Below are positions 21,253-25,984 of a stretch of DNA of 34,518 bases, piece after piece. A model generated the notes under the pieces. The model ran no database searches. It worked only from the letters and a program-made list of their open reading frames with translations, and had not been told where the DNA came from. This DNA is from a virus. Lineage: Duplodnaviria > Caudoviricetes. Positions within the stretch are counted from its first letter, which is position 1; each line of letters begins with the position of its first letter. The position numbers were made by a program, and so were the translations under genes. The stretch lies in the IMG/VR virus record IMGVR_UViG_3300016466_000164, positions 1-34,518 of that record; one strand, given 5' to 3'.

Positions 21253-23236
21253 TCAGTGCCATCATGTAAAGCATCGCCTGTTGCGGATCGTTGATGACCT
21301 TATCTGGGTCAAGATCAAGGCTCCGCGCAATCTCTTTGATGATTTCAGGCCAGTTGATGAAAGGTGCCATGATCTGATTCGCACCCACCTGCACCAGTGA
21401 AAGCAGGCGTTGCGTCTTGATCTCTTTTTGCAACAGGGCAGTCGTGCCCTTAGCTACTATCTTGAGGTCGCCAACGACTTCAAGATCGTCGGAAAACTGC
21501 ATATTCCAATGGAAATACCCTTGCCCCAGCGGCTCAAGTAGGTACTGGTCAATGTTGCGGATGACCTTCTTGATGTTCAGTGCCGCAGCACCCATCAGCA
21601 TAGACATCCCGGAAGCCGTCCGCGTGGTCCCGCTGACTCCCGTTGCGCCATGACTATAGCTGTAAATTCCGGTGGATTCGTCAGCCAGCTGCCGCGCCTT
21701 GTCGAACATCTGGATGTGCGCCGGGGCGGTGTTGTTAAAGCTGATCGAGTAAATGCTCTGGCCGGGGGCACCGCCTTGGCGGAAGAACATCTTTCCGGGA
21801 TAAATTGTCATATCCTGTCCAGGGGACAGGTTTGTCTCATCCACCTCAAAGACACAAGACCCAGCAAATTTCAAGTTATCCAGCGCCGCACGATAATGCG
21901 TGTTCATCGCGGCTTGCGTATCGCTCATGTTCTCCGGAACACCAATGCCCCAAATTTGGGCCGGGTGGCGTTCATACGGAAACATTTGGTACGGGATGCG
22001 GGAAGGCGTAAACGGATTTACGACAACGCGAAGAACTTCGTCCTTGGCAACCCACACATTCACATGGATTGTGTCGGCAGTGCGGTATTCATCCGGGATG
22101 CTGACCTCAAGGGCTTCCAGCGTCTCACGATCCAGTGTACCCCAGTACTCAATGATTTCATACCGCAGCGGCTTGGCCGAGATATTGGAGTCGTCCAGTT
22201 GGTAATCCCACGTTTCCGTGAGAGCCTCCGGCGCTGTGTCAAGAATGCGTTGCACCGCCATCTTGTCAAAGAACGGGCGGTTCAGGAGTTCCCTGACCTT
22301 GCTCGGCCCCAGAAGGTGCCGCTCGATCAGGTATTCACACTCGTGAATAGAAGTCGCTTCCGGGTCTGGGAACAGGTTCCAGATGGTGACAAACTGCGCC
22401 TTAGGGCACAGTTTCTTTACCGGCATGTACACCCTTTGCCCGGTCGCTTTGTCTTTTTCCCAGGCTGGGGTGGTTTCCCATACGGAGAACGGCCCTTTGA
22501 TTGCCCCTGTGCCATAAATTACTTGCTCCTGTGTTGCTTTGATGAGATCATCTACCAGGCGCGTTTCCTCGATCTGATCGTGGATGCGCCGTTCCATCCG
22601 ATACGCCGCTTCATCTGCTGGATGAACCTGCGGAATCTTGGTTTTATCAGGACTAGGCCCTTCTTTCCACTTTCCAGCAATGGAGCCAAACTTACGTTTA
22701 ATCGTATCTCCAAATCCAGAAAGCAGGGTTGCCGTTGTGGCCCCACGCGGAATCTCTTTGCCATCGCCGGGGAATCCGTAGATGTCCTGCGGCTCTGGCG
22801 CAGCCTGTTCCGGTGCCAAGTGTACGACATCCGCCACTCCTTCGGGAATCGGGGTCGGCTTGACGCCAACCGGGAACTTGTTGTCGCTAAGGAGGACTTC
22901 CAGAATCTGAGCGTGAGCAGCTTCGCTTTTGGTTTTCGTGATCTTGATAAAGATTTCCGAAACCATAGGATTGTACTGGCGAAGCTGCGCCATGTTTGCC
23001 GCTTCCTCGGCAGACAAATCCCCGCGCCATGCCCGCAGCGCCTCTAGCCAACGCTGTTCATGCGGGTTGCGGGCGTCCTTGGCAATCGTGTACCTATCGC
23101 GCACAAACGAGTGTACGCGCTGAAACCGCGCTTTCTTTTCATACTCACGCGGGCTGTACGCCTCCGGGGAAGCCGAAACGACCTCCTGCTTGCCCGCAGC
23201 AAGCATATCCTCAGAAAGATCGGTCTCCAAGTCCAT
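21071..23236 (-). CDS. Portal protein (721 aa)
   Basis: 'EQRWLEALRAWRG', 'IFIKITKTK', 'YGTGAIKGPF', 'WNLFPDP', 'IWGIGVPENM.DTQ', 'RTASGMSMLMGAA'; follows terminase. Confidence 0.9.
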   Translation of the reverse strand: MDLETDLSEDMLAAGKQEVVSASPEAYSPREYEKKARFQRVHSFVRDRYTIAKDARNPHEQRWLEALRAWRGDLSAEEAANMAQLRQYNPMVSEIFIKITKTKSEAAHAQILEVLLSDNKFPVGVKPTPIPEGVADVVHLAPEQAAPEPQDIYGFPGDGKEIPRGATTATLLSGFGDTIKRKFGSIAGKWKEGPSPDKTKIPQVHPADEAAYRMERRIHDQIEETRLVDDLIKATQEQVIYGTGAIKGPFSVWETTPAWEKDKATGQRVYMPVKKLCPKAQFVTIWNLFPDPEATSIHECEYLIERHLLGPSKVRELLNRPFFDKMAVQRILDTAPEALTETWDYQLDDSNISAKPLRYEIIEYWGTLDRETLEALEVSIPDEYRTADTIHVNVWVAKDEVLRVVVNPFTPSRIPYQMFPYERHPAQIWGIGVPENMSDTQAAMNTHYRAALDNLKFAGSCVFEVDETNLSPGQDMTIYPGKMFFRQGGAPGQSIYSISFNNTAPAHIQMFDKARQLADESTGIYSYSHGATGVSGTTRTASGMSMLMGAAALNIKKVIRNIDQYLLEPLGQGYFHWNMQFSDDLEVVGDLKIVAKGTTALLQKEIKTQRLLSLVQVGANQIMAPFINWPEIIKEIARSLDLDPDKVINDPQQAMLYMMALNAGQKQGPEGAGVPSVGGQMGEGGGATGGVNPRDVTGSGGGTIGVGASPMPGEAGFSGNA

Positions 23237-23238
23237 TA

Positions 23239-23472
23239 TCAGCCAACCAGCTTATTTGCGCCGCCAGTCGGAAGCGTCATATTTTTCTTCGACGCGCCCT
23301 TCTTCGGCATCCCCTTCATCAGGGCGTTGCCTTCGGAAGATTTCAGCGACGATGCCATATTCATCTTGCCATCCGGCTGCTTTTTTGGCATAGTCTTGAA
23401 GAACGTGTTTTCACAGCACGCTGTCAGGTTCATGGTGCCGGACGATCCGCCAGCAGGGAAGGGTGCGTTCAT
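23239..23472 (-). CDS. Small basic hypothetical protein (77 aa)
   Basis: Exactly fills the terL-portal gap; AGGA upstream. Confidence 0.55.
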   Translation of the reverse strand: MNAPFPAGGSSGTMNLTACCENTFFKTMPKKQPDGKMNMASSLKSSEGNALMKGMPKKGASKKNMTLPTGGANKLVG

Positions 23473-23473
23473 T

Positions 23474-25984
23474 CTAGTATCCTGTCTTTCTGTTTAGGAT
23501 GACTGGGGGTTGCGGGCGTATTAATCGCCCTCGGTCAGAGAATAGGCTTGTTTTTACCGGGCGGCTCGCTAGCCCATAGCGCATGGCATCGTAGCAGTTT
23601 TTGACGAGTATCCCTCCGCAGATGGAGAAGCATCCCGTCTTAGGCACAGTCAGGCAGTACACATCCGCTTTGCCTGCTGGCTCTATCTTTACGCAAACTT
23701 GCTGCGCATTTTTTGCTGCAAGTCTGTTGTTGCTTTCCATATTTGTAGCGCAAAAAACTCGTCGAGCAAACCAGGCAACTGACTTGCGTGTAGTAGTCTT
23801 CTTTCGCTCTTGCGGCCCTAGACTTACAGGCGTTACTGCAAAATTTTCCCCTTCCGATTTTTTCGCAAGACTTCCCGCATACTTGGCACACGATGCCCAC
23901 AATTTTGTGTAGTAGGTGCTTATACCTTTCATACTGTTCCCGGTGCCAGTTTCTTCCAGCTTCGCTTCTGTGCCACTCTGCGGCACCCTCTTTTGCAAAC
24001 TGGATAGCATACTGCCCGTTTTTCCGTAGAACGTCAGAATGCCTGTCAGACAAGTGATCGTGGTGAGACACTGCTTCCAGATTCTCTGGGGAGTTGTTTG
24101 CTCGGTCCCCATCAATGTGATGAACGTGGAACCCTTGGGGGATGTCGCCGAAGTTTTCTTGCCAGACTTTTCTGTGCAGTCTAATCCCGTCCCTCTGAAA
24201 GTATTTCCCACAGAGAAAATATTTTTTGCCCTGAAAAACTTGGCAAGTCTCACTGATAACTTCCGGGCGCATGGGTAACTTCCTGCGAATACATTGGTGT
24301 ACGACTTACCCAACATATCGGATGCAGAAACCCACCCTTCTTGCGACCAAAATTTGTGGTCTGGGGTGCAGGTGACTTTCTTTCCATCTGCAAAAGTGAG
24401 CGTGACAACATCTGCACTTTTTCGAGTAAGTCTCCTATTGTAATACACTTCTTCCCTTCCGTCAACAGAGAAGACTATCCCCTTGTCGCTTGGAAGAAGT
24501 TCTATTGGGATTTGCCCCTGTGGGGTATCTACTAAAGTGCCTGCAACAAAGCAATGGTCGGGGGCGTCCGTATCCACGTCCTCAGTATTCTTCGGATCAA
24601 GCGGGAGCGTGGAAAGCTCTTTTATAAGCTCTCTACAGGTACTGAATATCTTCAGCCTTGGCTCCGCCGTGTTTACATCATCCGCAAGATAATGATGCAC
24701 CAGCATCTTGCCATGCGACCGCGAACCCTTTGTCTTGTTGTCCGCTGGCCTCCAATGGCATCCTGCCCGAATCATCGTCAGGGCAGGGGATGTAGCGCCC
24801 CTGTTATCCCATGCGCTGGCGTCCAAGACGCCGTAGCTTATATCTTCTTCAGACTCTCGGAAAAGTATGTTTTCAGCAAACTTTTCCGGGCGCTCATTTG
24901 TTGCGCCATACTCGCGGTAAACATAAAGAGTGCCACGAGGATCGACCGCAAACCAGAGACATGCCGCTCTGGAAGAGAACCCCCAGTCCGCTGCCCGAAA
25001 CTTCTTCCAGTAGTGTGGGATTGGGAAGGGGTCACAGATATGTTTCTTTTTACTGAACTCACTAAAAGCGAGGCCGTCGTCAGCATCCCAGTCTCCATCT
25101 AACCACTGCCTCCTCAGATTTTCATTGCCAAGCGATTGAAGCTGCGCAATGTATTGTGGATCGCGTTTCAGTGACGGGTTGTTGAATACCGTCGAGTTAA
25201 TAGCTTTGCGGCTCAGGTTTACTACCTTACCGCCGATATTATACTCGACATCAAACTTATTCATTAAGAAAAAGTTTTCATCACTGTCTTCATCAATATA
25301 TTCCACCTTTTCCAGCGGAGCAGGGTCAATGAATCTTGCTTTAACCCAATGCTTACCAACGCCGGAAGGGTTGGCCGTGAGCCGGACACACTTTTTAATA
25401 TCGCTTTTGCTGCTTCGGATGGACATCAGCAGCTTTTGGTATGGTTCTTCCTCCGAGAGCTGGCATACCTCGTCAATGCCCAGCCATGAGAACTCAAGCC
25501 CTTGATAACGCTCAACATCTGCGTCTGTTTCAAAATACCCGCACCAGAGGAAACCGCCTGCGGGAAAAATAAACTTCTTATCCTGCTCTCGCCACTTTGT
25601 ACCTGGAACGGCTTTGAAGAACAGGCTTTTGCAGCGTTCGATAAGCTGCTCCAAGTCCTTTAACATCTTCCTAAGCAGCAGCCCCTTGAAGTCCGGGTGA
25701 TGCACATAATGCAACATGTCAGCAATCAGGGCGTGGGACTTTGCTGATCCCCTTCCGCCTGAATGGAGGACTTCAAACTCGCCCGCCTCAAGAAAAGCCG
25801 TCTGGGGGCCAAGGTGCGGTCTGAAGATGTACTCCACATCATTTTTAACCATGTGACCAGAAGAAGTGAACGACACCTCATCCGGCTGTTCTGGTACAAT
25901 AGCGACAGCCTGTTTCTTTGGCTGTGCTTTAGTCCTCGTCTTCGGTAATAGATGTGATCGCTTTACCGGAGGTGAGTTCTTCAT
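23474..25984 (-). CDS. terL: Terminase large subunit precursor containing an intein (836 aa; 517 aa after splicing)
   Basis: Walker A 'GGRGSAKS', Walker B 'WLGIDE', 'LTANPSG', nuclease 'AADWGF'; the motif DH-CYDAMRY is restored on intein removal. Confidence 0.93.
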   Translation of the reverse strand: MKNSPPVKRSHLLPKTRTKAQPKKQAVAIVPEQPDEVSFTSSGHMVKNDVEYIFRPHLGPQTAFLEAGEFEVLHSGGRGSAKSHALIADMLHYVHHPDFKGLLLRKMLKDLEQLIERCKSLFFKAVPGTKWREQDKKFIFPAGGFLWCGYFETDADVERYQGLEFSWLGIDEVCQLSEEEPYQKLLMSIRSSKSDIKKCVRLTANPSGVGKHWVKARFIDPAPLEKVEYIDEDSDENFFLMNKFDVEYNIGGKVVNLSRKAINSTVFNNPSLKRDPQYIAQLQSLGNENLRRQWLDGDWDADDGLAFSEFSKKKHICDPFPIPHYWKKFRAADWGFSSRAACLWFAVDPRGTLYVYREYGATNERPEKFAENILFRESEEDISYGVLDASAWDNRGATSPALTMIRAGCHWRPADNKTKGSRSHGKMLVHHYLADDVNTAEPRLKIFSTCRELIKELSTLPLDPKNTEDVDTDAPDHCFVAGTLVDTPQGQIPIELLPSDKGIVFSVDGREEVYYNRRLTRKSADVVTLTFADGKKVTCTPDHKFWSQEGWVSASDMLGKSYTNVFAGSYPCARKLSVRLAKFFRAKNIFSVGNTFRGTGLDCTEKSGKKTSATSPKGSTFITLMGTEQTTPQRIWKQCLTTITCLTGILTFYGKTGSMLSSLQKRVPQSGTEAKLEETGTGNSMKGISTYYTKLWASCAKYAGSLAKKSEGENFAVTPVSLGPQERKKTTTRKSVAWFARRVFCATNMESNNRLAAKNAQQVCVKIEPAGKADVYCLTVPKTGCFSICGGILVKNCYDAMRYGLASRPVKTSLFSDRGRLIRPQPPVILNRKTGY
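23597..24553 (-). mobile_element. Intein in TerL (aa 478-796, 319 aa)
   Basis: Block A 'CFVAGTLVDTPQGQIPIE', block B 'VTCTPDHKFW', block F 'ADVYCLTV', C-terminal 'GILVKN' followed by Cys+1. Confidence 0.92.
23640..24272 (-). CDS. HNH endonuclease with two C-terminal Cys4 zinc-finger-like modules, nested out of frame in the intein (210 aa)
   Basis: 'LHRKVWQENFGDIPQGFHVHHIDGDRANNSPENLE'; CQVC...FCSNAC and CLVC...TCSKKC; own ATG with AGGAAG 6 nt upstream. Confidence 0.88.
   Translation of the reverse strand: MRPEVISETCQVFQGKKYFLCGKYFQRDGIRLHRKVWQENFGDIPQGFHVHHIDGDRANNSPENLEAVSHHDHLSDRHSDVLRKNGQYAIQFAKEGAAEWHRSEAGRNWHREQYERYKHLLHKIVGIVCQVCGKSCEKIGRGKFCSNACKSRAARAKEDYYTQVSCLVCSTSFLRYKYGKQQQTCSKKCAASLRKDRASRQSGCVLPDCA

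Follow-up and report, generated by a model that had tools for sequence, protein, structure and literature searches.

The DNA examined here is a 34,518-nt stretch from a virus of the Caudoviricetes (Duplodnaviria; positions 1 to 34,518 of IMG/VR record IMGVR_UViG_3300016466_000164), which we call the window; its minus strand carries terS, terL, portal, capsid and tail genes, marking it as part of a phage genome, and the runs that contain its sequence are mostly freshwater metagenomes, with no RNA run among those listed. Our subject is terL, the gene for the large terminase subunit. Its open reading frame (ORF) contains a predicted intein (residues 478-796), without which TerL is 517 aa long, and within the intein the same strand encodes a complete HNH endonuclease in another frame (Table 1). 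The HNH ORF begins 281 nt into the intein, and 281 mod 3 = 2, placing it 2 nt out of step with terL; the third frame across the intein holds many stops. An initial annotation, made from the sequence, had described the 319-aa intein at DH|CYDAMRY, the absence of a nuclease from its own frame, the 2-nt-shifted HNH protein with two Cys4 modules, its own ATG and AGGAAG ribosome-binding site, and the running of its 3' end into intein block F. Each of these points holds up in the analyses below, and a profile search of both frames, which it had proposed, places HNH_3 in the nested frame and intein_Nterm in the TerL frame.

Table 1. Features of the terL locus (window coordinates; predicted features are named as such).
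Feature	Position	Strand	Evidence
terL precursor ORF, 836 aa	23474..25984	-	Pfam Terminase_6N and Terminase_3; PHROG terminase large subunit
N-extein, 477 aa, C-terminal ...DAPDH	24554..25984	-	85-87% identity to intein-free alleles L257-L260
Predicted intein, 319 aa: Cys1, block B TPDH, terminal Lys-Asn, Cys+1	23597..24553	-	sequence; AlphaFold and Foldseek intein matches
Predicted N-terminal Hint part, residues 1-89	24287..24553	-	pLDDT (per-residue model confidence) 92-98; Foldseek RecA, DnaB and gp41-1 inteins, E 3e-5 to 2e-4
Intein-frame insert: stop-free, no predicted fold, shadow frame of HNH gene	23702..24286	-	pLDDT 42-59
Predicted C-terminal Hint part, residues 285-319; first 21 codons also code HNH C-terminus	23597..23701	-	pLDDT 84-98
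C-extein, 40 aa (CYDAMRY...), holds Asp of H-x-x-D motif	23474..23596	-	colinear with DH|FYDGLRY
Nested HNH endonuclease ORF, 210 aa, 2 nt out of step with terL	23640..24272	-	phrog_15471, E 7e-37, residues 1-198; 31 homologues
HNH_3 core: H51, H52, N60, N64, H73; His at 78	24054..24182	-	profile match I-HmuI 1u3e, E 0.002
Cys4 module 1: C129, C132, C145, C149	23826..23888	-	kept in 99-100/100 nested homologues
Cys4 module 2: C166, C169, C185, C189	23706..23777	-	C166 and C169 in 83/100 nested homologues; C185 and C189 from sequence
Shine-Dalgarno (SD)-like AGGAAG, 6 nt 5' of ATG	24279..24284	-	duplex -4.6 kcal/mol, moderate
Predicted mRNA hairpin pairing AGGAAG; candidate translational brake	24273..24337	-	-29.4 kcal/mol, z -2.0; 7/200 shuffles as stable
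Near-invariant tract: intein with ~130 and ~180 nt on its two sides; candidate co-conversion tract	23417..24682	.	0/35 differences from contig L001 inside

The residues of a class 1 intein are present in the window insert (C1, T63, H66, N319 and Cys+1), which scores 27.8 bits against NCBIfam intein_Nterm, above the cut-off of 24.5, and 28.7 bits against Pfam Intein_splicing, under the cut-off of 35.8. From an AlphaFold model built from 64 sequences it is predicted to adopt a Hint fold; the Foldseek search with this model returned 27 matches at E <= 0.001, and those shown are all inteins or intein-like. Within the family described below, block B TxxH is kept in 95 of 97 inteins and the terminal pairs are HN (61), SN (27), KN (6) or other (3). 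The insert sits between the His and the Asp of the TerL H-x-x-D motif, which we liken to H400/D403 of SPP1 gp2 by motif alone, because the TerL nuclease domain had no match among solved sequences; in the accessible text of PMC3592435, the SPP1 residues bind metal and their mutants are without nuclease activity.

Canonical mobile inteins carry a homing endonuclease in frame with the splicing domain. Here the Pfam profile search of the intein frame yielded no nuclease match, and the nuclease is a complete ORF at offset 2 inside a contiguous intein frame; that frame is unbroken, free of the stop and new start that would make it a split intein (fractured gene). The 210-aa ORF matches Pfam HNH_3 (E 9.6e-16, 57.6 bits against a cut-off of 24.8), retains the catalytic H-N-H core (H52, N60 and H73) and eight Cys, and is modelled confidently (mean 91.6). 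Its nearest solved relative, by profile (E 0.002) and only weakly by fold, is I-HmuI (PDB 1u3e), with which it shares the N-terminal beta strands and the HNH_3 core, and from which it differs in having His for Asp before the catalytic His and a C-terminal region of long helices and two Cys4 modules. I-HmuI is intron-encoded, whereas the window HNH is intein-encoded. The HNH stop lies 14 codons short of the intein end (family median 18), so the gene overlaps the folded C-terminal strands of the intein (residues ~285-305).

With a family profile made from 29 homologues we fetched 240 loci (256 with earlier loci and the window), of which 255 had a match and 197 passed a filter of >= 110 bits and coverage of most of the profile (58/255 dropped); grouping these at 90% identity gave 180 clusters. 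Only the best 80 loci of each of the viral and metagenome scans entered the set, so the class shares are those of a sample. In 100 clusters a whole intein encloses the HNH in the same relative frame as in the window, in 6 the HNH is nested in the other frame, in 34 a split intein encloses it, 32 have no detected intein and 8 are partial or truncated; in none of the 180 is it in frame. Collecting other terL inteins at this site, as the initial annotation had suggested, gave a class of 100 clusters with this layout, most of which keep the internal start. A TerL profile matches 89/100 nested, 6/6 other-frame, 33/34 split and 29/32 intein-free loci; the inteins interrupt the D/H-x-x-D motif close to the TerL C-terminus, at positions that vary by a few codons, and about 21 of the 32 intein-free loci have the HNH within ~100 nt of the terL 3' end. 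The six other-frame clusters (L024, L027, L034, L043, L044 and L046) have a shorter HNH that lacks the second Cys pair, and four of them have no SD and carry a -10-like hexamer 9 nt 5' of the ATG. Among the 34 predicted split terL inteins around an HNH (e.g. L030, L031, L213), N-parts are mostly 92-104 aa and C-parts go down to 36 aa; Lactobacillus phage CL2 (L006) is of this form, its C-part with the TerL tail unannotated. Four cultured phages, phiCDHM19, Highwayman, TJE1 and LS06, have the nested layout and are annotated with terL alone.

A search for in-frame forms among proteins of 483-2000 aa (lengths of 369-482 aa fell outside its range) gave 2 of 4121 candidates, both ending at the HNH end: P0032 and P0033 are in-frame TerL-InteinN-HNH fusions without an intein C-terminus, and both are singletons. 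Weak HNH matches under the family threshold, such as L140, L153, L171 and L174, do lie in frame within inteins. Two further loci are recorded here as observations in their own right. Clostridium phage phiCD119 (L013) is near-identical to phiCDHM19, but its terL annotation is split into several parts; the frame breaks, which fall within the intein region, may be sequencing errors. In Exiguobacterium phage vB_EauM-23 (L010:2285-3260) terL stops at ...KNNHSMAA and the DATRYAME tail that it lacks follows the HNH gene, with no intein detected; this is possibly an intron at the same terL site with the same HNH family.

Conservation of the nested start across the family suggests that the HNH is initiated separately. 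An ATG lies in the expected window at 92 of the 100 nested loci, and some start codon at 98; the window's HNH Met aligns with the N-terminus of stand-alone homologues. Median anti-SD energies are -5.8 kcal/mol at candidate ATGs (n=108), -2.3 at internal Met codons (n=123) and -1.65 at other-frame ATGs (n=244), the candidates being stronger than either (p 1e-11 and p 6e-16), and the enrichment at nested starts matches that in free-standing copies. Loci with a weak SD differ in another way: the hexamer TAnnnT stands 5-9 nt 5' of the start in 20/44 of them against 9/124 strong-SD loci, a comparison uncontrolled for AT content or intein codons, and within the nested class in 9/24 against 6/74 (background 3.9%). 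This hints, as a lead, that weak-SD relatives with such a -10-like hexamer may make short internal transcripts; in the window no TAnnnT occurs 5-9 nt before the start. An internal sigma-70 promoter, TTGACG-17-TACAAT at 24465-24437, was considered and dropped, since two such sites against 1.3 expected is not significant.

The initial annotation had put the chance of an open shadow frame at (61/64)^200, about 1e-4, and read it as a sign of selection on both frames. That estimate proves too strong: when the HNH protein is held fixed and its synonymous codons are redrawn from local usage (20,000 draws), 2.7 intein-frame stops are expected and P(0) = 0.051, so that for this single locus the chance is nearer 0.05. 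At the level of the family, the intein frame is open at 99 scored nested loci against 3.1 expected by synonymous redrawing, and in the intein-free control loci the shadow frame is open in 1/32, with a median of 7.5 stops. The residue pairs MK, MN, MT, MI and MM, each of which forces an intein-frame stop, are absent from the 99 nested loci; the 34 split loci hold 42 of them and the 32 intein-free loci 34. This total of 0 in 99 nested HNHs against 76 in 66 others is a visible cost of nesting. The sole intein-free locus with an open shadow frame, L092, has a complete terL followed by the HNH and then a second CDAMRYACM tail, and is possibly a relic of a nested element.

Selection at the amino-acid level follows the HNH frame. 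In 30 related pairs, on which this codon-position test rests (the window itself has no informative close pair), differences at HNH-frame codon positions 1, 2 and 3 are 0.25, 0.20 and 0.46, as in split and free-standing copies, and amino-acid identity over the insert is 69% in the HNH frame against 45% in the intein frame. This pattern marks the HNH as a selected protein and the intein-frame insert as a stop-free linker. H33, N64, H73, W100, C129 and C132, all outside the search patterns, are kept in 100/100 nested loci. These sequence comparisons indicate that the HNH frame is under purifying selection, as expected of an out-of-frame endonuclease, and that the intein-frame insert drifts, constrained against stops only, except in ~20 codons at its C-terminal end. 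Of the dual selection first proposed, the part concerning the HNH amino acids therefore stands, and the part concerning the intein frame is reduced to avoidance of stops outside those last codons.

Several observations are compatible with mobility and lend it support. Four terL alleles (L257-L260) whose protein is 85-87% identical read DH|FYD without an insert; the intein is absent from 12 of 13 inspected TerL relatives (8 more distant ones included), the exception being a near-identical contig, and the intein-free alleles are colinear with the predicted spliced TerL. The second viral contig, L001, is 99.3% identical to the window over 5021 nt, and none of its 35 single-nucleotide polymorphisms falls in the intein. 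Assembly pieces from runs X7 and X18 have flanks that differ by ~10% around the intein tract: in X7 a 1227-nt piece shows 0 differences and has alternative pieces on both sides, one with 33 in 314, and in X18 the intein pieces show 0-3 differences each and an adjoining piece 74 in 697. One X18 piece has a 65-letter loose end that resembles an empty allele and, at 36 + 29 letters, has a length to match; we take it as a probable intein-free allele. On the HNH tree (FastTree, long branches, unrooted) the four states need 31 changes against a shuffled mean of 65, at least 7 changes of the nested state are forced by well-supported branches, and the window falls within a supported 38-member group that holds all four states.

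Taken together, these observations suggest, with a probability of roughly 0.8, a widespread and most likely mobile intein that has as its nuclease the product of a nested gene translated on its own. The dual-coding selfish element with a separately initiated HNH that was originally proposed is supported by the conserved ATG, the SD enrichment, HNH-frame selection, the predicted Hint fold, the empty alleles and the invariant tract. The 319-aa intein would splice out of one continuous terL frame to give the 517-aa terminase, and TerL would depend on this splicing, since the insert breaks up the nuclease domain's H-x-x-D motif. Ribosomes on terL would read the HNH region as a disposable stop-free linker that leaves with the intein, while others would initiate at ATG 24272, where the hairpin over AGGAAG may hold them back; in some relatives a short internal transcript perhaps serves for the HNH. 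This nuclease, which carries two zinc modules, would nick or cut intein-free terL near the DH|FYD codons, and repair would copy the intein with 100-200 nt of flank. As to origin, a free-standing HNH family at the terL 3' end may have invaded mini-inteins at that site, leaving the intein whole where one frame stayed open and split where stops arose. A 134-aa mini-intein in terL (L015:2501-2899), the best match in the phage collection to the splicing parts (47%), is a possible model of the state before HNH invasion.

A broader proposal, to which we give somewhat less than even odds when its parts are taken jointly, sees in out-of-frame nesting no rare intermediate but a stable condition that dominates in a very common HNH family. 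The nested gene would have a start of its own and, in part, also a promoter or hairpin that controls it; the family would switch repeatedly between whole, split and free-standing forms and be a large unannotated source of natural split inteins; and many 'degenerate' terL inteins would be mobile. On this reading, because the HNH stop overlaps the C-terminal strands of the intein in another frame, a single indel could not yield a canonical in-frame intein.

Some of our observations weigh against the reading of a mobile intein with a separately translated nuclease. The nested class is defined by its open frame, which makes its zero stop count partly circular, and H51, H52, D54 and partly N60 belonged to the search patterns. 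A Foldseek search with the HNH model gave no match at E <= 0.001, the best being I-HmuI at E 0.087. The hairpin signal is weak across the family: z < -2 is reached in 22/98 start regions, compared with 7/98 and 13/98 in two control regions. The unitig pieces are unphased, so the invariant tract is support and not proof. Co-phylogeny of HNH, intein and TerL is uninformative (rho range 0.21-0.34): over 83 nested loci HNH-intein rho is 0.34 and HNH-TerL rho 0.33, the trees being too deep to show co-travel. Finally, the window copy itself has Arg in place of the family's His77, a residue present in 164 of 172 members, its SD is only moderate (-4.6), and its intein has His neither in the penultimate position nor in block F, a lack seen in 13 of 97.

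The points on the window copy are also what one would see if that copy were decaying in a family otherwise as described, with its nuclease weak or dead and its intein merely inherited. A penultimate His is usual in class 1 inteins and not obligatory; the ORF is intact, H51, H52, N60, N64, H73 and all eight Cys remain, and His78 may replace His77, while the near-invariant intein tract between variable flanks across studies fits recent spread. The window copy may be weaker than the family, and we regard outright decay as unlikely. A programmed ribosomal frameshift from the terL frame, yielding a TerL-InteinN-HNH fusion, is favoured by the pairing of the window SD in the predicted hairpin and by the fusions P0032 and P0033; these two are single-contig singletons without the intein C-terminus that may be indels, however, and against a frameshift stand the ATG in 92/100 nested loci, an SD enrichment like that of free-standing copies and the alignment of the Met with stand-alone N-termini. 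From these comparisons of start sites we consider it quite improbable. About equally improbable is the reading that the HNH serves TerL as a domesticated cofactor in packaging, as with the HNH of HK97, and that nesting provides co-expression. The family is almost always in or beside terL, such HNH cofactors exist (accessible text of PMC10448857), and the idea has been raised for Brucella phages in the part of that literature available to us; yet at 10 of 11 loci of intein-free relatives the family profile has no match within 2-kb flanks, and the match at the eleventh is a different HNH in another intein, so that in these close relatives the HNH is not conserved beside the terminase as in HK97-type systems. 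Position and orientation also vary, and the nearest solved sequence is the homing endonuclease I-HmuI. An assembly artefact, in which two compensating indels moved an in-frame HNH out of frame and which the single-locus chance of ~5% might have favoured, is refuted: assembled contigs of 8 runs from 8 studies (X1 may be the window's own source) contain no intein indel, the L001 intein is identical, and 100 diverse clusters share the frame.

The general layout is already known from Brucella phage Tb (2015), actinophages (2025) and dnaX (2026), which we compare as far as the accessible parts of the sources describe them. The terL of Brucella phage Tb (JN939331 ORF07/08, PMC4422536) likewise has a contiguous intein with a same-strand HNH nested in another frame. 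Its intein lies at the ATPase site (RAD|C...HN|CVIIDD) and not at the C-terminal nuclease motif, its frame offset is 1 and not 2, and its HNH is C-terminal, matches PF01844 and scores only 18 bits against the window family's profile. The non-canonical actinobacteriophage inteins of Gosselin et al. (bioRxiv 10.1101/2025.01.02.630785) share with the window a nuclease gene on the same strand in frame 3, an unstructured intein-frame insert, terL among the hosts and a proposed origin from a free-standing nuclease, but there the out-of-frame nuclease is endonuclease VII-like and HNH is listed only in frame. The cyanobacterial dnaX intein of Phillips et al. (bioRxiv 10.64898/2026.09.14.751524) shares an overlapping +2 ORF under purifying selection within a drifting intein frame; its host gene is cellular and its nuclease LAGLIDADG, with HNH and terminase unmentioned in the text available, in contrast to the phage terL and HNH of the window. 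The fractured genes of Dassa et al. 2009 (PMC2677866), split inteins around a free-standing endonuclease, correspond to the form seen in 34/180 clusters and share an endonuclease 3' end overlapping the C-terminal intein part and hairpins 5' of the point where the nuclease gene starts; the nucleases there belong to the GIY-YIG and Vsr-like types, whereas the window has an HNH in a whole intein, a state absent from the model as given there. In ShiLan (Arsenault et al. 2025, PMC11855218) an HNH is hidden in another frame of a stop-free insertion in a phage methylase, a non-essential host gene, and there is no splicing domain, unlike the window intein in terL.

Our literature search, which did not cover subscription journals or bioRxiv supplements, found no account of this HNH family, be it nested, split or free-standing, at the terL nuclease site. 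To an intein specialist in 2026 the general layout would come as no surprise, but its scale and the missing in-frame form might. The layout would amount to a second way to build a mobile intein, with two proteins from one DNA stretch and the nuclease under its own translational control. Over 100 natural nested, split and free-standing versions at one site make it possible to test directly whether inteins are invaded by free-standing endonucleases, and the split forms are candidate new trans-splicing inteins. That the HNH is unannotated in all four cultured nested-form phages implies that annotation pipelines miss this layout and may call such inteins degenerate.

A second intein site is indicated in related terL genes. 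In runs X5 and X7, 910 letters replace 22 at window 25471-25494; the X5 contig with this replacement, 4871 nt long, extends across the window's intein as well, and that strain may carry two terL inteins. L260 (615-3056 +; 85% TerL identity) has no C-terminal intein and a different one of ~300 aa at the ATPase site (GMEY|C...RN|CWIGVDE), matching window 25471-25494, which hides a 208-aa HNH_3 and HTH gene on the opposite strand (L260:1899-1273, -). In the accessible text of Gosselin et al. (bioRxiv 10.1101/2025.01.02.630785), antisense intein nucleases are LAGLIDADG and VSR, and the L260 gene differs in being an antisense HNH.

Elsewhere in the window, a 465-codon ORF (21650-23047, +) lies antisense to the portal gene and is probably a shadow frame, and a thymidylate synthase recognised by a PHROG match (1214-2143, +) is encoded on the strand opposite the structural genes.

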